NCBI RefSeq assembly: GCF_036964565.1
Contig: NZ_JBALTN010000011.1
Location: 54,889-118,888 of the forward strand
Source: Parasphingorhabdus sp.
GTDB taxonomy: Bacteria > Pseudomonadota > Alphaproteobacteria > Sphingomonadales > Sphingomonadaceae
Reading direction: 5' to 3'
Length of the DNA: 64,000 nt
The notes beneath the pieces were generated by a model. The model was not told the DNA's origin. It was given only the letters and a program-made list of their open reading frames with translations, and did no database searches. Of the stretch, positions 24,118-33,187 are shown piece by piece (position 1 is the first letter of the stretch; the number at the start of each line of letters is the position of its first letter). The position numbers and the translations under genes are program-made.

Positions 24118-25517
24118 CCCGCGGGCAATACCAGCGTAGCGCGCAAGCCTCCGCCTGCCCGGTTCTTCAGGATGATATCCCCGCCATGGTCGCGCGCGAT
24201 GGCGCGAGCCAGCGTCAGGCCGAGGCCGGAACCGCCGGTTGCCCGGTTGCGCGAGGCCTCGCCGCGCAGAAATGGTTCGAACATCGATTCGATGGTCGCT
24301 TCGGGAATGCCCGGCCCGCTGTCGTCGATATGTATCATCAGCCTGTCACCGGAGTTTTCCACAGAGATATCCGCAGCCTTGCCATATAGCGTGGCGTTTC
24401 CGACCAGGTTGCGCAATGCGCGCCGAACCAGCGTCTCGCGTACCAGGGCGCGTTGCTTGTCGCCGCGCTGATAGCGGACGATGTGCCCGAGATCGGTGAA
24501 TTCATCGACGACGGTTTCGATCAGCGAGCGGATGTCGACCGGCTCGGCCTGGTCCTGTGACCGTCCGAGACGGGCCAGCGAGAGAATGTCGTCCAGCATA
24601 TGGTCGATATCCTCGATGCCAGCGATCATGCGCTCGCGTTCGGTGGCGTCCTCGACATTCTCGACGCGGACGCGCAGCGCCGCCAGCGGCGTCCGCAGGT
24701 CGTGACCGATCGCGCCAAGCATGACATCCTTTTCGCTGATCATCGTGCTGACGCGCGCGCCCATCGCGTTGAACGCGCGGATCAGGTCGCGGGTGTCCGG
24801 CGGGCCCTGCTCGGGCAGCGCCGGGGTTTCTCCCGGCCGGAAATCGAGGGCCGTGGCGGTCAGCGATTTCAGCGGGCGGGACACGTAGCGGCCGAGCAGG
24901 AACAGCGGGATCAGCATCAGCAGATAGATCATGACCGTCTGGAGCAAGAGCGTCCGCACCATCAGCGGCGAGCGGCCGCGAACGGTGGAGGCGATGCTGA
25001 CCCATTGACCGTCGGCTTGCCGCGCGGAGATGATCACATAGCCGCGGATTGCGCGCGGTTCGAGCCGACCGCCCATCGAGCGGTTGATCGGACCCTTGCG
25101 CCATTCGCCCCGGTTGGCACCGATCAGGTGGCCGGCCATTGCCGGGTCGAGATCGCGGTTGAAGCTCGCCCGGATTTCGGAAAAACCGGTGCCCATATTG
25201 GCGAAGGCCTGACCGGCACGGCTTTCCAGCTCAGGCAGGCGCTGCATGTCATCGGTGACGGCGCTTTCGGCGCTGTATTTGAGCTGGCCCCAGCGCCGCG
25301 CCCGCATCGAGCCAGCGCGGCGAGCCGGTCGGTCGCTGGCCTGGCGCTCGAGTCCGAAGGCGATCCGGGCAACGGCACCGGTCGAGGCCTCGACCAGATT
25401 CTGGGTCTGGGCACCCCGATAGAGGAGAAAGCTGTTGATCGCCTGCGCCAGCAACAGCATCAGCGCGACGAGCAGCAACAATTGGCCGACCAGGCTGCGG
25501 GGCCACAGGCGCTTCAC
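24114..25517 (-). CDS. Two-component sensor histidine kinase (TM-HAMP-HisKA-HATPase)
   Basis: 467 aa from GTG 25517, which forms a GTGA overlap with the response regulator stop. The H-box is GHDLRTPL and the G-box is GGSGLGL. Confidence 0.8.
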   Translation of the reverse strand: MKRLWPRSLVGQLLLLVALMLLLAQAINSFLLYRGAQTQNLVEASTGAVARIAFGLERQASDRPARRAGSMRARRWGQLKYSAESAVTDDMQRLPELESRAGQAFANMGTGFSEIRASFNRDLDPAMAGHLIGANRGEWRKGPINRSMGGRLEPRAIRGYVIISARQADGQWVSIASTVRGRSPLMVRTLLLQTVMIYLLMLIPLFLLGRYVSRPLKSLTATALDFRPGETPALPEQGPPDTRDLIRAFNAMGARVSTMISEKDVMLGAIGHDLRTPLAALRVRVENVEDATERERMIAGIEDIDHMLDDILSLARLGRSQDQAEPVDIRSLIETVVDEFTDLGHIVRYQRGDKQRALVRETLVRRALRNLVGNATLYGKAADISVENSGDRLMIHIDDSGPGIPEATIESMFEPFLRGEASRNRATGGSGLGLTLARAIARDHGGDIILKNRAGGGLRATLVLPAG

Positions 25518-26233
25518 AGCGACAGGACCTCGCCGGCCAGCACATAGCCGCCGCCCCACACCGTCTTGATGATCTCGGGGTTTTTCGGATCCGCCTCGAT
25601 CTTGCGGCGCAGGCGGCTGATCTGGTTGTCGACGGCGCGGTCGAAGGCATGGGCCTCGCGCCCCTGGGTGATGTCGAGCAGCTGATCGCGGTTGAGCACC
25701 TTGCCGGCGCGCGAAACCAGCGCCAGCAGCATCTGATATTCGCCGGTGGACAGCGAGATGGTATCGCCATCCGCGTCGACCAGGCTGCGCTTGTCGCATT
25801 TCAGCGTCCAGCCGGAAAAGCGGTAGCCGCCCTCCGAGGTGCCGACCTGCCGCGGCGCGCCCTTCTCGGCTCGGCGCAGGACCACCTTGATCCGCGCCAC
25901 CAGTTCGCGCGGGCTGAACGGCTTGGTGACATAGTCGTCGGCACCGAGTTCCAGACCGATGATCCGTTCGGTTTCCTCGGTCCGGGCGCTGATGAAGATC
26001 ACGGGGATCTCGGTCTTGTCGGTGACATGACGGCAAAAACTCAGGCCATCCTCGCCTGGCATCATGATGTCGAGCAGGATGATGTCGAAATCATAGGCGT
26101 TGAGCAGTGACCGGGCGACGCTGGCGTCGCTTGCCTGCTGGACCTTGTAACCCTGCTTGACGAGATAGTCCGCCAGCGGCTCGCGCAGCGAGGCTTCGTC
26201 ATCGACCAGCAATATGTGAATCTTGTGCGTCAT
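25514..26233 (-). CDS. OmpR/PhoB-family response regulator
   Basis: 239 aa with a receiver domain (ILLVDDE..DIILLDIMMPG) and a winged-helix C-terminus (TVWGGGY). Confidence 0.85.
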   Translation of the reverse strand: MTHKIHILLVDDEASLREPLADYLVKQGYKVQQASDASVARSLLNAYDFDIILLDIMMPGEDGLSFCRHVTDKTEIPVIFISARTEETERIIGLELGADDYVTKPFSPRELVARIKVVLRRAEKGAPRQVGTSEGGYRFSGWTLKCDKRSLVDADGDTISLSTGEYQMLLALVSRAGKVLNRDQLLDITQGREAHAFDRAVDNQISRLRRKIEADPKNPEIIKTVWGGGYVLAGEVLSL

Positions 26234-26342
26234 CCGTTCGCCCTATCACAGGAATTCCAAAAAGAAACGGACCGCCAGCCATCGGGAGGGAGGGGAATGG
26301 CTGACGATCCGTTCGCAAAACAGGGGATTCAGGGATTGGCCC

Positions 26343-26930
26343 CTATTTTTTCCACTGGGCGCGCATCGCCTTCCAGGCCGCCTGACGCTCTTCGCTGGTC
26401 AGCTTGCCGTCCTTGTTGGCATCGGCCTGGTCGAAGCGGGCGGTCGCCATCGATGTGAATTCGGCCTTGCTGATCTTCTGGTCGCCATTGCTATCGGCCT
26501 TGGCCAGCATTGCCATGCCGCGACCACCGCGGTGTCCGCGCATGCCCTTGCCTTTGCCCTTCTTTGCCATGGCTTCTTCCTGGCTCAGCGTGCCGTTGCC
26601 ATCCTTGTCGCGACGCTCGAAATGGCGGGCCTCGCGGGCGGCGCGAGCGGCATCCATCTCGGCTTGCGAGACCTGGCCGTCGCCGTTGCTGTCCATCTTG
26701 GCGAAACGCTCGGCCTGCTTCGCTTCACGATCTTCCTTGGACAGGAAGCCGTCGCCGTTGACGTCCATGCGGGCGAAGCGCTGGTCGAGCGACTGGGTCA
26801 GTTCCGAGCGGCTGACCGCGCCGTCGCCATTGGTGTCGGCGCGCATGCCGCGGTCGCCGGGAGCGGCAACGGCGATGCCGCCGGCCATCAGCATGGCGGT
26901 GGCGGTGGAGAATAGGATTGTCTTTTTCAT
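26343..26930 (-). CDS. Secreted protein with six EF-hand calcium-binding loops
   Basis: 195 aa. It has a signal peptide and six DxNxDGxhSxxE-type loops: DTNGDGAVS, DVNGDGFLS, DSNGDGQVS, DKDGNGTLS, DSNGDQKIS and DANKDGKLT. Confidence 0.8.
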   Translation of the reverse strand: MKKTILFSTATAMLMAGGIAVAAPGDRGMRADTNGDGAVSRSELTQSLDQRFARMDVNGDGFLSKEDREAKQAERFAKMDSNGDGQVSQAEMDAARAAREARHFERRDKDGNGTLSQEEAMAKKGKGKGMRGHRGGRGMAMLAKADSNGDQKISKAEFTSMATARFDQADANKDGKLTSEERQAAWKAMRAQWKK

Positions 26931-27025
26931 GTCTGTGTTCCTCTTGGTTCAGGCAGACGGTCTTTTTTCCGTCCTGGATGTCCTTCTAGTGGCGACTTGT
27001 CGCTGAACTTTGTCAGAACGGCCGA

Positions 27026-27042
27026 AAATTGTCGCAAATTGT
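27026..27042. promoter_or_regulatory. Direct repeat AAATTGT-N3-AAATTGT (10-bp phasing) upstream of the EF-hand gene
   Basis: AAATTGT occurs at 27026-27032 and at 27036-27042, about 95-110 bp upstream of the 26930 start. The geometry fits a winged-helix regulator site. This is speculative. Confidence 0.25.
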
Positions 27043-27130
27043 AACGGACGGGCGCGGCGGTTCATGCGCATGACAGGCCGGGGCCGGTGCGGAGTGGCGT
27101 GGCGGGCGGGACGGGCGCGGGAATGATATT

Positions 27131-27893
27131 GTTCTTGTTTGCCGTCCCCTCCTGTCCGCGATCTCTGGCGGCGATGGCGTTGCGCGGGGCGAACGGCCCG
27201 ACAGGAGGGGGCCGGCCGGCATTGATCTAGGCGAAATACCGGATGGCAGGCTTGTTGTCTGCCGGCAAAACGCGGGCCGGACAAGAACGCTGCCGTTCGC
27301 TGGCTGCACTGCGCATTTCGGCGGGATAGCGCGGAAATATGGGGTTGAGGCGAAACAAGAAAGCTGTGGTCTACCGGACTGGGCGGGGCTTATGTCGCTG
27401 CGCCGGTGGCGAAATTGGCGGAGCGGCCGACATGGCTGCGGCGGAACAAGAACGTCCCTGTTCTGCTGCCGGTTTCGGCTTGCGACGGGCTGCCAGGGAG
27501 GTGTTTTGAGCCGTCCCGGTATCTCGTCGCGAGCGTCGATCACGGGGGAACATGGCCAGGCGCACGCTGACGGGCGGAATCCGGAACAAGAAGCCTGCCG
27601 TCCGGGAACAGCAGCTTTGCGGTTCAGGCGGCCTGGCGACCTGCGGGGTGGCGGACGCGCTTGTCCGGGCCGAGCTGGAGGGCCATGGCGATCTGGATGG
27701 CGCGGCCCCTGCTGCCCGCCGGGTCCGGATGGAGGGATGGCAAGCCGCTCCCCAAGGGTCCCCGAAAAGCGCAGAAAACTGCGGGTAGTAGCGGTGCTGG
27801 CGTCATGATTGCGAGCCGGATGCCGGGCGTTCGTGGCGAGACAAGAGTTTTGCCATTGCCCGCAATGGGACGCGAACAGCAGAATTCTTGTTT
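27131..27893. repeat. Dispersed short-motif cluster (G[GA]AACAAGAA and GAACAGCAG) in a non-coding tract
   Basis: Direct copies occur at about 27279, 27352, 27443, 27583 and 27838. Inverted copies occur at 27131, 27251 and 27884. The related GAACAGCAG motif occurs at 27460 (reverse complement), 27605 and 27874. Most copies are preceded by GGCG. Confidence 0.45.
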
Positions 27894-28303
27894 GGCTTGG
27901 CGGTGCCGGTGCGGGTTCGTGGAAGCGCACCTGGCAGATGCCAGCGGCATTTTTGGCGGATTTGAGCCATTGTGGTTCCCGAACGCCGGGAATCGACGTC
28001 GACGGCCCTGGCCGGAGCGTCATGGCCGCATGACGTCACTATGCGCGGGCAAATGGGGGGCCGGGGGCCCTGTCCGGCGGGCTCGAGATCGTGCCGGGCG
28101 GCGGGTGAGTGGATGGAGGTCATGCCGGCTGGTGACAATCATACCGGCGGGTCTTCAATATTATATCGCAAATATTACAGATAATATCGCGAATACAACA
28201 GGTTGAAAGAGATTAATAATATTTAATCCGAATTCATTGCCTAGGGTGTTTTGAGCTGACGTATCCGCCATATTCTGACGCCAGACCAGCTCCTTAGCGG
28301 CTG

Positions 28304-28319
28304 TTAATCAGTTTTTAAC
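28304..28319. promoter_or_regulatory. TTAA-N7-TTAAC (CtrA-box-like) upstream of the PAS kinase
   Basis: TTAAtcagtttTTAAC reads exactly at 28304-28319, about 170 bp upstream of ATG 28491. The region is AT-rich, so a chance match is plausible. Confidence 0.25.
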
Positions 28320-28490
28320 GGAGGATATGGGGCTATTGCAGTATGATCCCTGCCCGCAATCATGTCGCGGTCTGCCTCAGCGGGCGCGCGGTCTCCGCCA
28401 CTGCGCCCTGCCCTCAGGCCTCTATTAACCCAATGGAATATTGTTATAATTCATGATAGCGGTGACGAATCACGCGAAGAAAGAATCCCG

Positions 28491-29963
28491 ATGTCGAAAT
28501 TGCAGTCCGGTGAACAGGCACCGGATTATGGGTCAGATCCCCTGATTTTCAAGGAAATGGCCAATAATCTGCCGGTGCTGTGCTGGATGGCGGACAGCGA
28601 TGGCTATATCACATGGTATAACGAGCGCTGGCACCGCTATTGCGGGACGACGCCCGCCGAGATGGAGGGATGGGGCTGGCAATCGGTCCATGATCCGCAG
28701 CGTCTGCCGCATGTCATGGAGGCCTGGACCGGTTCGATCGCGTCGGGAGAGGCGTTCGATATGACCTTCCCGCTGCGCGGCGCGGATGGCGTCTATCGCC
28801 CTTTCCTCACCCGCATCACGCCATATCGCGATGCCACAGGCGAGATCACCCACTGGTTCGGCATCAACATCGATGTTACGGAACAGGACGAGACCGCCAG
28901 GCGCCTGAAGATAAAAAGCTATGCGCTGGAGCGTGTTCTGGCCGAACGGCAGGCGATCCTGGACCAGCTCGGCGAAGGCGTGATCATCACCGATGCGGGA
29001 GGCGAAATCGTCTACATGAACGAACGCGCCCAGATCCTGCACGGGCAGGAACAGCTGGGCGTGTCGCCGGATGACTATACCGCGGCGTTCCAGCTGCTGA
29101 CGGTGGACCGGGAGCCCTATCCGGTCAATGACCTGCCGCTGACCCGTGCCGTGCGGGACAATGTCACCACGGCCGACAGCGAATGGGTCATCCGTCGCGG
29201 GGACGGCTCGGAAATATTGGCAAAGGGCAATGCCAAGCCGGTCTATGACGACAACGGCGAGAAAATCGCGGCGGTGCTGACGATTCGCGACGTCACCAAG
29301 AACCGGGCCAACGAGCGCGCGCTAAAGGAAGCGCTCGAAGCGAAGGAAATGCTGCTTTACGAGGTCAACCACCGGGTCAAGAACAGCCTCCAACTGGTAA
29401 CCTCGCTGTTGTCGCTGCAATCCGGACAGGGTTCGCCAGAGCTGCAGAAGAGCCTGGAGAATGCCCGGGCCCGGATCGGCGTCGTGGCGCGGCTGCACGG
29501 CCAGCTCTATCTTACCAGCAGCCATGACCGGATCGCCGCGGGCGCATTTCTCGAAAGCCTGGTCACGGAGACCGTCGATGCGCTGAAACCGAGTGACGGG
29601 GTGCGCTGCCACACCGACATTGTTGATGAAGTGGTTCTGCTGCTGGATCAGGCGATACCGCTGGCGATCGTGGTCAGCGAACTGGTTACCAATGCGCTGA
29701 AATATGCCTTTGACGAAAAAGCGGAAGGAACCGTCTCGTTATCAGTGCGTAGAATGGATGATGGAAAGATCAGGATCGAGATTGCGGACGACGGCCACGG
29801 GTTGCCTTCCGGCTTTGATCCGGCCGCTTCGTCCGGCTTGGGAATGCGCGTTTCCTACGCGCTCGTCCAGCAATTGAGAGGGGAATTGACCTTCTCCTCG
29901 TCGGATCAGGGCACGATCTTCTCGATCATGTTTGAACCGATGCCGTTAAAGGCGGAACAGTAA
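28491..29963 (+). CDS. PAS-domain sensor histidine kinase, HisKA_2/HWE-type
   Basis: 490 aa from ATG 28491. It has two PAS-like segments and the H-box EVNHRVKNSLQLV that is typical of HisKA_2 kinases, followed by an HATPase domain. Confidence 0.8.
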   Translation: MSKLQSGEQAPDYGSDPLIFKEMANNLPVLCWMADSDGYITWYNERWHRYCGTTPAEMEGWGWQSVHDPQRLPHVMEAWTGSIASGEAFDMTFPLRGADGVYRPFLTRITPYRDATGEITHWFGINIDVTEQDETARRLKIKSYALERVLAERQAILDQLGEGVIITDAGGEIVYMNERAQILHGQEQLGVSPDDYTAAFQLLTVDREPYPVNDLPLTRAVRDNVTTADSEWVIRRGDGSEILAKGNAKPVYDDNGEKIAAVLTIRDVTKNRANERALKEALEAKEMLLYEVNHRVKNSLQLVTSLLSLQSGQGSPELQKSLENARARIGVVARLHGQLYLTSSHDRIAAGAFLESLVTETVDALKPSDGVRCHTDIVDEVVLLLDQAIPLAIVVSELVTNALKYAFDEKAEGTVSLSVRRMDDGKIRIEIADDGHGLPSGFDPAASSGLGMRVSYALVQQLRGELTFSSSDQGTIFSIMFEPMPLKAEQ

Positions 29964-29982
29964 ATTGAGTTGGTGTAATACT

Positions 29983-30375
29983 ATGCGTGTCCTGATTGTA
30001 GAAGACGAGTTTCTGGTTGCGATGGAAATGGAATCCATCCTCAAAAGCAATGGAATTGCGGTTTCCGGATGTGCCAGCAACATATCCGAAGCGCAGCGAA
30101 TCGTCCGCGAACAGGAGTGCAATTTTGCCCTCGTCGACATCAATCTAGCAGACGGTGACAGCGGTCTTTCGCTATCGCAATGGCTGGCGGAACAGAAGAT
30201 ACCCTCGCTTCACGTCAGCGGCAATTGCCCGGCTGACCGGGACGCCACGGCAGCGGTAGGATGCCTCAGAAAGCCATTCAGCCCGCACGATCTTATCGGA
30301 TCGCTCAAAGCCGTACAGGCCGTGCTCGTCGATACGCCTCCCAAGACCCTGCCTTCCGGCCTAGCGCTGTTTTAA
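29983..30375 (+). CDS. Single-domain response regulator (receiver only)
   Basis: 130 aa. MRVLIVEDE..., an ALVDINLAD acceptor region and a conserved K (LRKPF). There is no output domain. Confidence 0.8.
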   Translation: MRVLIVEDEFLVAMEMESILKSNGIAVSGCASNISEAQRIVREQECNFALVDINLADGDSGLSLSQWLAEQKIPSLHVSGNCPADRDATAAVGCLRKPFSPHDLIGSLKAVQAVLVDTPPKTLPSGLALF

Positions 30376-30460
30376 TCTTAATCAGTCAACGCACGTGAGC
30401 CGCCGAACCGCTGTTGCGGTGGTCGGCCGCAGGGTACTGCCAAAGAATGGCAGCTTGTCC

Positions 30461-31546
30461 TCAACCAGGAATGATCGACCGGACCACAGAGGCAATCTGC
30501 GACTGGCGGTTGCAACCCATTTTCGAAGTGATCTGCTTGAGCTGAGTGCGAATGGTTGACAGGGACACCTGACGCGCCTCCGCAAGCTCCTGCAGCGACC
30601 TATCGCCACCAATGCCGGCAGCAATTTCGGCTTCGGCAGGGGTAAGTCCAAACAGGCTCGACAATCTTTGCACGAGAACCTTGTCGGGCGGGCGATTCAC
30701 CCTGAGAAGAAGCATCGCGGCGCGCGTCCCGTTGGGCAGCTTGAGTGGCGATACGGTCGCAATCGCCGGACGGCCGTCGTGATAACCCAATATTATCGCG
30801 TCCGCACTCGGCGAGCTTCCTGCCGCTGACGCCAATGCGATTCTCAGCTGCTTTGTCGCCGTTCCCACTGCCTCGATCCGACCATGGGAATGGACGAGCA
30901 GCCGATTCTGCCGGATGTAATTTTCCGCGGCAGCATTCATCTGGAGAACGCGGCCTTCTCCGGATACCAAAAGGGCGGCATCTGCCATGGCGTCGATCAT
31001 GCCCTGCAGAGTCAGGTTTTCACGCTCGAAAGAGGAGAAGCGACCCTGAATTGAAAGCATTCTCCGCAGATGAACGGCATAGTCATCGAGGGCTGCGACA
31101 TTCGATTCTTCGAAACGATCCTGTGATAGGCCACGATGGACAACCGCCATTCCTGTCCCCCAGGCCGTCTGTATCCGAACACCGACCCCGCGACATGTAT
31201 CGTCGCCGGACGACCGGATAAAATCATTATAATAGGCTGATTTCTGGTAGGTTTCCAAGGACACGAGATTTTCCATATCCATCGCTGAATTGACGGGCTG
31301 GCGCGTCTCTGCAGCCTTGATCCACGGGTCGACCGGAGCGAATTCGGTCGCATAGGCCATCAGTTGCTGATCGGAAAAATAGCCGCAATGCGTAAGCACC
31401 TGCATGGATCCGTCATTATGTTGCCACTGGACAAGAGCGGAGCGACCGCCGAGCGCTTCTGCCAAGCGCCGGGGCAATCCTGCCAGGCTTTCGGAATCCA
31501 GTGCCGCATCGTAAATTTCTTCGGTACAAAAACCGCGATTTTCCAT
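30461..31546 (-). CDS. LuxR-family transcriptional regulator with N-terminal sensory (PAS-like) region
   Basis: 361 aa. The C-terminal HTH reads LTPAEAEIAAGIGGDRSLQELAEARQVSLSTIRTQLKQITSKMG. Confidence 0.8.
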   Translation of the reverse strand: MENRGFCTEEIYDAALDSESLAGLPRRLAEALGGRSALVQWQHNDGSMQVLTHCGYFSDQQLMAYATEFAPVDPWIKAAETRQPVNSAMDMENLVSLETYQKSAYYNDFIRSSGDDTCRGVGVRIQTAWGTGMAVVHRGLSQDRFEESNVAALDDYAVHLRRMLSIQGRFSSFERENLTLQGMIDAMADAALLVSGEGRVLQMNAAAENYIRQNRLLVHSHGRIEAVGTATKQLRIALASAAGSSPSADAIILGYHDGRPAIATVSPLKLPNGTRAAMLLLRVNRPPDKVLVQRLSSLFGLTPAEAEIAAGIGGDRSLQELAEARQVSLSTIRTQLKQITSKMGCNRQSQIASVVRSIIPG

Positions 31547-31974
31547 GAATGCCCCCCTGCATGGTTCATCGGTCGGTACACAAACCGCACAGGGTTCCTG
31601 CCTGCTAATAGAGACAGTATCCGGATCAGACTGCGCATCACCCGCCTACCCCAAATGGGGGATGCGAATCGAGATAAAAGCTTTAAAGTCAGGTCACTAG
31701 AAGTCAATTAAGCCATTCCCGAAACAGGAAGATACCAGAGCAGCCGCGGCGATTTGTCGCGCGCGATTGCTGTGGCGTGGGACGTTTCGGGAGCGGATTG
31801 GTCAGGCTGACGGTCAATATCTTCGGGCAATTTTATACTTCAAGGGACAGATTTTGATGAGCGTGACGGGCATCACGGGTGATGAGCCAGAAGGTGCCGC
31901 ATTGAAGATCTGCAATTGGGGCCTTCGCTTTATCTAACGAACGCGCGGAACAAAGCGCAATTTGGGGAAAAATT

Positions 31975-32097
31975 ATGAAAAAAATGAATCTGATCGCAGT
32001 CGCTGTTCCAGCGTTGCTGCTCGCTGGTTGTGCAACCATGCCTGCCATGCAGAATGTTGCGACCGTCACGGATCCGGTCGCCAGAGAAGCGGCATAA
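31975..32097 (+). CDS. Candidate 40-aa lipoprotein (below the ORF-track size cutoff)
   Basis: ATG 31975 is preceded by a GGGGA Shine-Dalgarno-like sequence. The translation is MKKMNLIAVAVPALLLAGCATMPAMQNVATVTDPVAREAA, with a perfect lipobox (LLAGC). Confidence 0.5.
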   Translation: MKKMNLIAVAVPALLLAGCATMPAMQNVATVTDPVAREAA

Positions 32098-32980
32098 CCC
32101 AGGCAAACCGCTCCGCGATTGCATCTCGCTGCCCCCTGTCCGGCTTCCATTTTTTCTGGATGAACAGCGCCTGGAGGGTCGGCTTGATAATTTCGCTAAA
32201 TTTCAAGCTGCTGGGGTTTAGATATTCGTTTCCACAACCGATTTTAGCAGCAGCTTGCCCTGGCGAAGGATCGATCGTTTCTTTCTCGCTCAGCTGCTGC
32301 AAAACAAGCGATACAATATCATCATCGAGGAGAGCCATAACACCCCGTCCGGATGTTTTTATAACGGGATGATCGAGCAATGCCGCTCGATCGTGCGCCT
32401 CTGCAAATCCGCGCAACTTTTGGTAGCGCGCATCGCCAAGGATTGTCTGGTTGTGAGATATACCGAGTTCATCCAGTGCATCTATTGCATCAGACAAGCT
32501 GACGCTCATTGGCGTAACCATGATCTCAAGTGTTTTGATCAACCGCATAAAATCGGCATCTGACCAGCTATCGTCAATTACGGATTCGACGATTTCTGCT
32601 TCAATCCCTATTGCATCATGCGGCACCTGCCGGAGGATCCGGTAAGCTGCTGCCATTATTTTATGCAGAGATGGTGGAGTTAAGGTGCTTCCTATTGGAG
32701 AATCTTTATGAGCGGTCGCGTGCGCCAGTTCTTCTTTGAGAGCATTTTTGAAGATTGCTTCGCGCTCTTCGATCGTCAATGTGCCGCGCTGGAAATTTGA
32801 TTGCATGTCCATTTCTGTCTCATCCCATATCACGGCAAGCCGGCTGGCAAGACGGCGCGCCTCGCCTGGATCCGCTGTGCCCAGTGTTATGCTTATAGGA
32901 CGTATGGACAGTTTTGATTCACAACGCCGACGAAAATGATATCTCGCGCCCTTTCGGATCAGATAGGTCTGCTTACGCAT
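32066..32980 (-). CDS. Integrase-like N-terminal fragment (DUF6538-like arm/core-binding region; the catalytic domain is absent)
   Basis: 304 aa from ATG 32980. The N-terminus YLIRKGARYHFRRR resembles the arm-type domain of tRNA-associated tyrosine integrases. I saw no R..HxxR..Y catalytic region. It is adjacent to tRNA-Gly and has low GC. Confidence 0.45.
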   Translation of the reverse strand: MRKQTYLIRKGARYHFRRRCESKLSIRPISITLGTADPGEARRLASRLAVIWDETEMDMQSNFQRGTLTIEEREAIFKNALKEELAHATAHKDSPIGSTLTPPSLHKIMAAAYRILRQVPHDAIGIEAEIVESVIDDSWSDADFMRLIKTLEIMVTPMSVSLSDAIDALDELGISHNQTILGDARYQKLRGFAEAHDRAALLDHPVIKTSGRGVMALLDDDIVSLVLQQLSEKETIDPSPGQAAAKIGCGNEYLNPSSLKFSEIIKPTLQALFIQKKWKPDRGQRDAIAERFAWVMPLLWRPDP

Positions 32981-33113
32981 CTCCCCGTCCTGCATAATGA
33001 ACGCGACCAGTGAACGCACCAAACACGGGGTATTGGATGTGTGAGAAGCTATGGAATACGTCATCGCGAGGCCGCCTTAAAAGTAGCGGTTTTCTGCGGC
33101 TAATTGAAAAATG

Positions 33114-33187
33114 TGGAGCGGGTGAAGGGAATCGAACCCTCGTCGTAAGCTTGGAAGGCTTCTGCTCTACCATTGAGCTACACCCGC
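33114..33187 (-). tRNA. tRNA-Gly (anticodon UCC)
   Basis: The reverse complement GCGGGTGTAGCTCAATGGTAGAGCAGAAGCCTTCCAAGCTTACGACGAGGGTTCGATTCCCTTCACCCGCTCCA folds as a cloverleaf. It has a 7-bp acceptor stem, a CTTCCAA anticodon loop, a TTCGATT T-loop and an encoded CCA. Confidence 0.9.

Follow-up and report, generated by a model that had tools for sequence, protein, structure and literature searches.

This analysis concerns a non-coding tract of 1055 nucleotides (nt), located at positions 27086-28140 of a 64,000-nt stretch of DNA (hereafter the window) from a marine Parasphingorhabdus-like sphingomonad. The tract, which is limited to its lineage and diverges fast, carries a short motif that is non-randomly concentrated there, recurs in related form in the spacers that occupy the same position in other lineages, and resembles a conserved site in the promoter of the adjacent gene, which is predicted to encode a secreted EF-hand protein. 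The tract may tentatively be read as a fast-evolving upstream spacer with an array of predicted distal half-sites for the OmpR-like response regulator encoded beside it, a possibility that we favor without regarding it as probable.

The tract and its motif array

The earlier note on this DNA had set apart a longer region, 26931-28140. This delimitation holds for 27086-28140. The initial 155 nt (26931-27085) have to be set aside, as they are the promoter and 5' untranslated region (5'UTR) of the EF-hand gene, which align in every lineage. The region is bounded on one side by the start of the EF-hand gene (26343-26930, minus strand) and on the other by an AT-rich segment (28141-28490), which is followed by the gene of a kinase with PAS and HisKA_2 domains. 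The GC content of the tract is 66%, against 61.5% over the whole window, and its G-over-C skew of 0.184 is the highest among the 1-kb windows of the 64 kb (mean 0.024, standard deviation 0.044). The second-highest skew is found at 600-2000 (0.14-0.16 in 1-kb windows). The tract also contains, at 27104-27121 on the plus strand, a canonical G-quadruplex motif, GGGCGGGACGGGCGCGGG, which is the sole plus-strand instance in the 64 kb. A literature search found no relevant work.

The repeated motif had been described in the earlier note, and all its motif coordinates proved exact on re-checking. Within 1065 nt, the 8-mer AACAAGAA is present 5 times where 0.011 occurrences are expected (Poisson p ~1e-12), and an equally extreme 8-mer was obtained in 0 of 300 dinucleotide-preserving shuffles, so that the background check places the array far above the expectation for this composition. 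All 5 exact copies of AACAAGAA or its counterpart TTCTTGTT in the window lie inside the tract, with zero outside. With at most one mismatch, GRAACAAGAA has 11 matches in the window (3.7 expected), 5 of them in the tract. Nine copies emerge when ACAAG is taken as the anchor, five on the plus and four on the minus strand, with a consensus of about 25 nt, GGCGG-AACAAGAA-NN-CTGCCGTTC. They are the following:

Copy 1, 27117-27144, minus strand: CGGCAAACAAGAACAATATCATTCCCGC, with the inverted core TTCTTGTTTG at 27132; nearest to the promoter, 187-214 nt upstream of the EF-hand start
Copy 2, 27237-27264, minus strand: CGGCAGACAACAAGCCTGCCATCCGGTA, degenerate; forms with copy 3 a 60-nt imperfect hairpin or inverted pair
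Copy 3, 27275-27302, plus strand: GGCCGGACAAGAACGCTGCCGTTCGCTG, with the direct core GGACAAGAACGC at 27279; includes the palindrome GAAC-N6-GTTC at 27285-27298
Copy 4, 27349-27376, plus strand: GGCGAAACAAGAAAGCTGTGGTCTACCG, with the direct core GAAACAAGAAAGC at 27352; its core has a G>C change at 27359 in the relative X6
Copy 5, 27440-27467, plus strand: GGCGGAACAAGAACGTCCCTGTTCTGCT, with the direct core GGAACAAGAACG at 27443; GAAC-N6-GTTC at 27450-27463, also readable as GAACA-N10-TGTTC
Copy 6, 27580-27607, plus strand: TCCGGAACAAGAAGCCTGCCGTCCGGGA, with the direct core GGAACAAGAAGC at 27583; followed by GAACAGCAG at 27606
Copy 7, 27643-27670, minus strand: GCCCGGACAAGCGCGTCCGCCACCCCGC, degenerate
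Copy 8, 27835-27862, plus strand: GGCGAGACAAGAGTTTTGCCATTGCCCG, with the direct core GAGACAAGAG at 27838; overlaps the palindrome CCATTGC-cc-GCAATGG
Copy 9, 27870-27897, minus strand: AGCCAAACAAGAATTCTGCTGTTCGCGT, with the inverted core TTCTTGTTTG at 27885

The motif core is a tandem pair of GAAC-like hexamers. It reads RRACAAGAA and is often extended to AACAAGAAC-N6-GTTC, and several copies (27285, 27450) contain the palindrome GAAC-N6-GTTC. Inverted copies pair to form long imperfect hairpins, for example at 27240-27299. The spacings between copies include 73, 91, 140 and 255 nt, and the array spans 760 nt. No motif copies were found upstream of other genes within the 64 kb. A position weight matrix derived from all nine was overfitted and contributed little beyond the window.

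The additional structure reported in the earlier note was recovered in part. The palindromes at 27853 (CCATTGC-cc-GCAATGG) and 28018 were confirmed, as was the related sequence GCGGAACAAAGCGC at 31945. Among the positions given for the partner motif, GAACAGCAG is present at 27606, but the sequence at 27460 is CTGTTCTGCTGCC, which is not its exact reverse complement. Since GAACAGCAG or CTGCTGTTC occurs 13 times in the window, this partner is weak by itself. The 11-nt inverted repeat CCCCTCCTGTC (27146) / GACAGGAGGGG (27200) is exact here, but one of its arms is broken in a close relative.

The absence of a coding signal was borne out. The spread of codon-position GC (maximum minus minimum) is 0.01-0.19 over about 26980-28180 against 0.3-0.47 in the neighbouring genes, and the mechanical open reading frames (ORFs) of the region give translations rich in R, P, G, S, C and W. 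Pfam returned only noise for the 7 longest ORFs of the tract. A search of 5.8 billion proteins at E<=0.1 recovered no homolog of the 336-aa ORF. The same holds, at the same threshold and in the same collection, for the remaining five frames when joined (8000 best word-sharing candidates scored). A tblastx comparison of the tract with all the fetched loci gave merely compositional matches, to a high-GC Rhodospirillaceae contig. These results bear on two options of the earlier note, a heavily decayed gene and a remnant of the replication or partition region (iterons or a centromere) of a plasmid or an integrative and conjugative element. The GC content close to that of coding DNA and the presence of short repeats would fit such an origin. 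Nevertheless, the tract has neither the residual protein similarity nor the codon-position bias of a pseudogene, and the six-frame protein search uncovered no frameshifted known gene. No similarity to the tract was detected by blastn (distant mode) among plasmid and phage records, and no rep or par gene was seen among the nearby ORFs. Tandem Repeats Finder reported no tandem repeats in the tract. Like plasmid iterons, the motif is short, repeated in non-coding DNA and located near a hot spot of integrated elements. In contrast to them, its copies have mixed orientation and irregular spacing of 73-255 nt, with no phasing, no rep gene, no AT-rich unwinding element in the array and no plasmid homolog; at least three repeats of 17-22 bp in the same orientation, with regular helical phasing and an adjacent rep or par gene, were not found. 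A decayed gene or replicon remnant is scarcely credible on these grounds.

Another option of the earlier note was a large structured or multi-unit non-coding RNA (ncRNA). In that case, one or more unannotated RNAs would be encoded on the G-rich plus strand, with the motif and its partner forming hairpins such as those at 27438-27470 and 27240-27299. An excess of G over C is typical of the sense strand of structural RNAs, and the skew of the tract (0.18) would agree with this. Some windows also fold better than their shuffled controls (27380-27560, z = -2.8; 27200-27400, z = -2.4; two local windows span z -2.4 to -3.9). Yet the mean folding z of the tract, -0.93 on the plus and -0.21 on the minus strand, is the same as that of the neighbouring coding DNA (-0.9, -0.6, -1.0 and -1.1; windowed, with shuffle controls). 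Rfam gave no tract match at the gathering score, nor at E<=5 with permissive filters, and on the spacers of eight relatives it found tRNAs only. The two promoter-like sites (0.6 expected) are both outside the tract, and the two terminator-like sites are at chance level (2.7 expected). The broken arm of the 27146/27200 inverted repeat is uncompensated, and divergence in close relatives is fast and clustered. None of the RNA runs contains the tract sequence, and no tract signal was seen, at low coverage, in a single metatranscriptome of a sample in which a carrier population is present. An ncRNA locus thus appears very unlikely.

The motif was also compared with dispersed repeats. As in repetitive extragenic palindromes and the mosaic elements that they compose (REP/BIME), the units are 25-30 nt long, imperfectly palindromic, intergenic and of alternating orientation, and some pairs form long hairpins. 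However, REPs are dispersed at hundreds of copies per genome, whereas the many dispersed intergenic copies that characterize them were not found within the 64-kb window, where the tract motif has no other copy. This argues against a REP-like family, and there is no RAYT transposase here either. Several other identities were rejected: an EcfG-type promoter (GGAAC-N16-17-CGTT) has the wrong spacing, the XerD arm of a Xer dif site is unmatched, and integron attC, Hin-type hix sites and Fur or Zur boxes were discarded by inspection.

A hypervariable slot in related genomes

The locus was compared with its counterparts in related genomes. When one genome per species was scanned with the kinase encoded nearby, 22 orthologous loci, 74-82% identical, were retrieved, and a metagenome scan added two, for a total of 24. 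The hosts of the 22 loci are Parasphingorhabdus, Sphingorhabdus and unclassified Sphingomonadales, from marine and other aquatic samples. The order of the locus is conserved: GlpD, tRNA-Gly(TCC), a variable slot, the EF-hand protein, the OmpR-like regulator and an EnvZ-like kinase. In the window, the slot corresponds to 27086-33113, and the features that frame it are:

25514-26233, minus strand: OmpR-like response regulator with Response_reg and Trans_reg_C (winged-helix) domains; the proposed binder of the motif
26343-26930, minus strand: secreted EF-hand calcium-binding protein (predicted), whose upstream region contains the tract
33114-33187, minus strand: tRNA-Gly(TCC), which anchors the hypervariable slot

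An ORF of 332 aa (32066-33064, minus strand) adjoins the tRNA. It matches the DUF6538 domain only, with no catalytic integrase domain detected and no NCBIfam match. DUF6538 is an N-terminal domain of integrases; since the ORF matches this domain alone, it probably has no catalytic domain, and it is probably a truncated integrase, which would imply a degraded island.

The content of the slot differs widely among lineages. It is near-empty in L013, L016 and L018, where 180-320 nt separate the tRNA from the EF-hand gene. The PAS kinase and a single-domain regulator fill it in L001, L002, L008, L009, L011, L012, L042 and L043, leaving only about 270 nt from the kinase to the EF-hand gene. In the other lineages the slot is taken up by fillers of about 0.3-5 kb, of which at least six unrelated kinds exist and some are coding in part. 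Upstream of the EF-hand gene, the alignment that extends to every lineage is confined to the proximal 155 nt (26931-27085), and neither the tract nor the AT-rich segment at 28141-28490 has a counterpart in the 24 related loci or among plasmids and phages. A metagenome scan with the EF-hand protein found only two relatives, at 72% identity and both without the tract, and the EF-hand homolog search returned none between 72% and 100% identity. A 21-mer of the tract had no match in the metagenomes scanned. An 18-mer conserved in the isolate-like organism A (see below) had one match among viral contigs, which was judged to be due to chance. The earlier note had made conservation in close relatives a test of its reading, and the outcome is divided: the tract is absent from the 24 related genomes but present in the closest relatives.

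Despite the lack of alignable sequence, a related motif recurs in the fillers of other lineages. A directed test, in which the 8-mer was defined from the window alone and applied with at most one mismatch to the non-alignable spacers at the same position, counted 6 occurrences in L019 (1.1 expected) and 5 in L020 (1.6 expected). When L019, L020 and L007 are pooled, 13 are observed against 3.7 expected, a number that 0 of 500 shuffles reach. In the tract the 8-mer has a density of 5.6 per kb, compared with 0.74 per kb in the rest of the loci. In an undirected search of six fillers, the top shared 8-mers were variants of TTATTGTT and ATATTGTT, with totals of 33-35 against a maximum of 26 in 20 shuffled sets; the fillers of L020, L021 and L022 are partly homologous to one another. 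The L020 filler carries GCAGAATGTTATTGTTTGCAG, GCAGAATGTTATTGTCTGACG and GCATAATGTTATTGTTCATCG, the L007 filler CAGCAATGTTACTGTTTGCAG, GACAATATTCTTGTTCGTTCGG and AAGGTTATTGTTCATCC, and the L019 filler CGAACAACAAGGTTGCTGTTCG, GAAGAACAAGCTTGCGGTTTCC and ATAATGTTATTGTTCATTC. Individual copies also have counterparts. Copy 1 resembles the elements GGGCAAATAATAATGTTATCATTCATCG of L021 and L022, which precede the EF-hand start codons there by 355 and 322 nt, and its 13-mer AATGATATTGTTC (27123-27135) is identical in a different L022 element about 840 nt upstream. Copy 9, read on the plus strand as GCAGAATTCTTGTTTGG, resembles GCAGAATGTTATTGTTTGC of L020.

Sequences closer to the tract are found in public metagenome contigs, which match parts of it at 88-94% identity:

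X1: covers 27103-27189
X2: covers 27358-27505
X6: covers 27280-27430 and 27652-27802
X7: covers 27444-27741

Copy 5 is identical in the X2 and X7 variants. In X7 the tract is 93.6% identical, whereas contigs of the kinase gene, assumed to come from the same source population, are about 99% identical; the tract therefore diverges several-fold (about six times) faster than coding DNA. Organism A, isolate-like and sampled in runs X8-X11, is about 94% identical in the EF-hand region and about 87% in the kinase. Its tract is of near-equal length (429 vs 440 nt between two anchors) and less than 80% identical save for two stretches, one reaching as far as 27138 within copy 1 and the other an exact 20-mer at 27579-27598 in copy 6. 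The retention of these motif stretches is suggestive, not significant.

Several scenarios may explain this distribution. One possibility is that the tract is a neutral scar, that is, a junk spacer of foreign or scrambled DNA caught in an integration and recombination hot spot, with the tRNA-Gly island on one side and the EF-hand promoter on the other, and grown by local direct and inverted duplication of a seed of about 25 nt (possibly an ancestral element at 27117-27144), in which case the array would be a functionless by-product. The hypervariability of the slot, the lineages without any filler and the presumably truncated integrase beside the tRNA are all consistent with this scenario, as are the fast divergence of the tract in X7 and in organism A, where its flanks stay at 87-94%. 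The motif cores are not measurably better conserved than the background, and a foreign origin would agree with the atypical GC content and G-skew. Nevertheless, a neutral scar does not predict that a related motif should be enriched in independent, non-alignable fillers, and the length of the tract was kept in organism A despite heavy divergence. Moreover, searches of plasmid, phage, genome and metagenome collections revealed no donor sequence, and there is no target-site or att duplication. This scenario is the chief rival of the half-site array, and we regard it as doubtful.

Alternatively, the motif copies could be arm-type sites of a recombinase or an accessory protein, or att remnants, that remained after islands had repeatedly integrated and excised at the tRNA-Gly hot spot, which would explain their recurrence across fillers. 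The arm-type sites of lambda-type integrases are short repeats of mixed orientation; the locus adjoins the tRNA and the presumed integrase remnant, and differing fillers share the short motif in both orientations. Yet no copy of the tRNA 3' end and no att-like or long direct repeat bounds the tract or the island (no match of more than 9 nt to the tRNA region in 26000-33080), and repeats within about 150 bp of such a boundary were not found. The 760-nt spread of the array is much wider than known att arms. The array lies on the side of the EF-hand gene, at a distance of 5 kb from the tRNA and the integrase, and no motif copy is found near the tRNA. In addition, L020, L019 and L007 have the motif and none of them has anything similar to the DUF6538 ORF of the window, which itself probably has no catalytic domain. 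Arm-type sites thus seem quite improbable.

The conserved promoter and the candidate regulator

The proximal stretch that aligns in all relatives contains the following elements:

26931-27085, minus strand: EF-hand promoter and 5'UTR, 155 nt, near-invariant in L001-L022, L042 and L043 (24 relatives)
27026-27045: tandem site, GTTACAATTT directly followed by GCGACAATTT, two tandem 10-nt units of the form NNNACAATTT
27005-27019: promoter element GTTCTGACAAAGTTC
26956-26973: 5'UTR hairpin GACGG...CCGTC (CATGACGG-loop-CCGTCTCC), directly before the Shine-Dalgarno sequence
Within 26931-27085: promoter element CTGTC-N6-ATGAAC
Within 26931-27085: -10-like TAGAA and Shine-Dalgarno sequence

A diverged version of this promoter, GATACACTTTGCGACAAAG...CTGACAAAGTGCTGCGACA, is still recognizable in the distant L023. 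Our reading of the alignment suggests that the tandem site at 27026-27045 is immediately upstream of a -35-like hexamer, CTGACA. The tract core NNNACAAGAA has ACAA in common with the NNNACAATTT units of this invariant element. The promoter stretch GTTCTGACAAAGTTCAGCGACAA contains GTTC-N7-GTTC, the form of the alphaproteobacterial LexA box; at the locus this form is found only at 27005-27019, and its two occurrences in the window are at chance level (1.8 expected). The tract copies were rejected as LexA (SOS) boxes for their wrong spacing, as they read GAAC-N2-GAAC or GAAC-N6-GTTC.

Beside the locus, the regulator at 25514-26233 is the one DNA-binding protein that all lineages encode, with 87-93% identity in relatives. 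For this reason, and for the OmpR-like layout of the promoter site, it is proposed as the binder of the motif. Its best NCBIfam match is OmpR, followed by TorR, ArcA and VirG, all below their equivalog cut-offs; since it scores 246 bits against the OmpR cut-off of 331, it is not an OmpR ortholog. The best family match of the adjacent kinase is EnvZ. A regulator of the cognate family is thus encoded nearby, as would be expected of OmpR/PhoB sites. The two direct half-sites of about 10 bp at a distance of 10-11 bp that such sites comprise are present only in the promoter at 27026-27045. By inspection, all nine copies of the tract lack a second matching unit at 10-11 nt, and they are at best lone half-sites.

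If these elements are read together, the tract is a lineage-specific non-coding spacer in a recombination-prone slot between tRNA-Gly(TCC) and the operon-like cluster of the EF-hand, OmpR-like and EnvZ-like genes, and its functional content would be the approximately nine short sites with the core RRACAAGAA. The primary site of the OmpR-like regulator would be the conserved tandem site of the EF-hand promoter, and the tract copies would be lone half-sites of lower affinity for the same regulator. The phosphorylated regulator at the proximal site could be supplemented, or titrated as by a sponge, by low-affinity binding along the distal array, which would tune the expression of the EF-hand gene and possibly also that of the divergent PAS/HisKA_2 kinase gene. 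The binding of a protein to these copies, its identity as this regulator and a regulatory effect of the binding are predicted with reserve, at a level that stays somewhat below an even chance.

This reading is in keeping with the dense binding array that the earlier note had listed among its options. That option is the best supported one, as the motif is non-random, recurs across lineages and resembles the promoter site beside an OmpR-like regulator, and the alternatives to protein binding that could be tested (RNA families, folding, tandem repeats, protein homologs) all came out empty. The ncRNA, iteron and decayed-gene options found no support, and one of the candidate regulators of the note, a LuxR protein (30461-31546), is encoded by a gene unique to this genome and so cannot explain the motif in other lineages. 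Neither Pfam nor NCBIfam matches this 361-aa protein (minus strand) at E<=0.001, and the related loci lack a counterpart; by eye alone, its C-terminus looks like a GerE/LuxR helix-turn-helix.

Several observations weigh against a distal array of half-sites. The copies are lone units of irregular spacing (73-255 nt) and mixed orientation, and internal duplication alone could produce the enrichment within the tract. The enrichment across lineages comes chiefly from L019 and L020. The motif cores have about 3 changes in about 60 covered positions, compared with 7.5% overall, in relatives that are 90-94% identical, and one of these changes turns ACAAGAA into ACAACAA. The exact 20-mer of organism A may be a chance run, about 0.8 such runs being expected per 1 kb by our estimate. 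The array is dispensable, because lineages with just 180-320 nt upstream of the EF-hand gene manage without it. Finally, a binding-site array does not account for the high GC content and strong G-skew of the tract, features that remain unexplained by every reading.

Among the closest known systems are the OmpR-binding regions of Escherichia coli. There, ompF and ompC have tandem 10-bp half-sites (F1-F3 and C1-C3), and the distal site F4 lies about 360 bp upstream of ompF. The neighbouring regulator and kinase of the window likewise score best against OmpR and EnvZ, the promoter-proximal units are tandem, 10 nt long, with ACA at positions 4-6 and a T-rich tail, and further related sites are found far upstream, as is F4. 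In contrast to E. coli, the regulator falls below the OmpR equivalog cut-off, the copies in the tract are single and spread over 760 nt, their tail is GAA instead of T-rich, and their binding is predicted only. Clusters of transcription-factor sites and decoy arrays offer a second comparison. As in these, one short motif is concentrated in non-coding DNA beside a candidate regulator gene and its flanks drift, but the tract is unusually GC-rich and G-skewed, it is dispensable in sister lineages, and its sites are predicted.

A broader hypothesis, which seems unlikely, is that across Parasphingorhabdus the slot keeps a kb-scale array of predicted lone half-sites (a selectable site sponge or distal enhancer) while the DNA that carries it turns over wholly, the array being rebuilt by local duplication in a recombination hot spot. 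It would then set the dose-response of a calcium- or envelope-sensing two-component system. The base composition of the fillers ranges from 43% to 66% GC across lineages. If the array does bind the neighbouring regulator, the locus would be a natural example of a distal or decoy cluster of bacterial binding sites that is conserved in kind, not in sequence, and the motif and its candidate protein would provide a handle on an uncharacterized EnvZ/OmpR-like system controlling a secreted EF-hand protein in marine sphingomonads. If not, the tract would be a documented case of fast-evolving filler in a tRNA-linked hot spot, in which strong local motif enrichment can arise without function. In its classification, the feature would be a further instance of an intergenic regulatory or filler region with a cluster of motifs resembling binding sites, of narrow lineage and predicted function. 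Either way, its practical value is modest and restricted to these organisms.

Neighbouring genes and the AT-rich segment

The product of 26343-26930 is a secreted protein with several EF hands, which might have calcium or lanthanides as ligands. It has sub-threshold NCBIfam matches to the calcium-binding XopAW effector family (89 bits) and to lanmodulin (59 bits). On the other side of the tract, the PAS/HisKA_2 kinase begins at 28362 in the mechanical ORF, while the alignment with relatives suggests the ATG at 28491 as its true start (MSKLQSGEQ...). This kinase and the single-domain regulator that follows it resemble PhyK/LovK-type partners of the general stress response (NCBIfam PhyK, 105 bits, below the cut-off). 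The intervening segment contains the following features:

28141-28490, no strand assigned: AT-rich segment of 46-55% GC that precedes the PAS/HisKA_2 kinase gene and is missing from the 24 relatives
28160-28201: ATTATATCGCAAATATTACAG and ATAATATCGCGAATACAACAG, a tandem of two 21-nt units within the AT-rich segment

These tandem units share TCGCRAAT with the conserved EF-hand promoter site, and a 12-mer taken from them, AATATCGCGAAT, is also present in the L019 filler.

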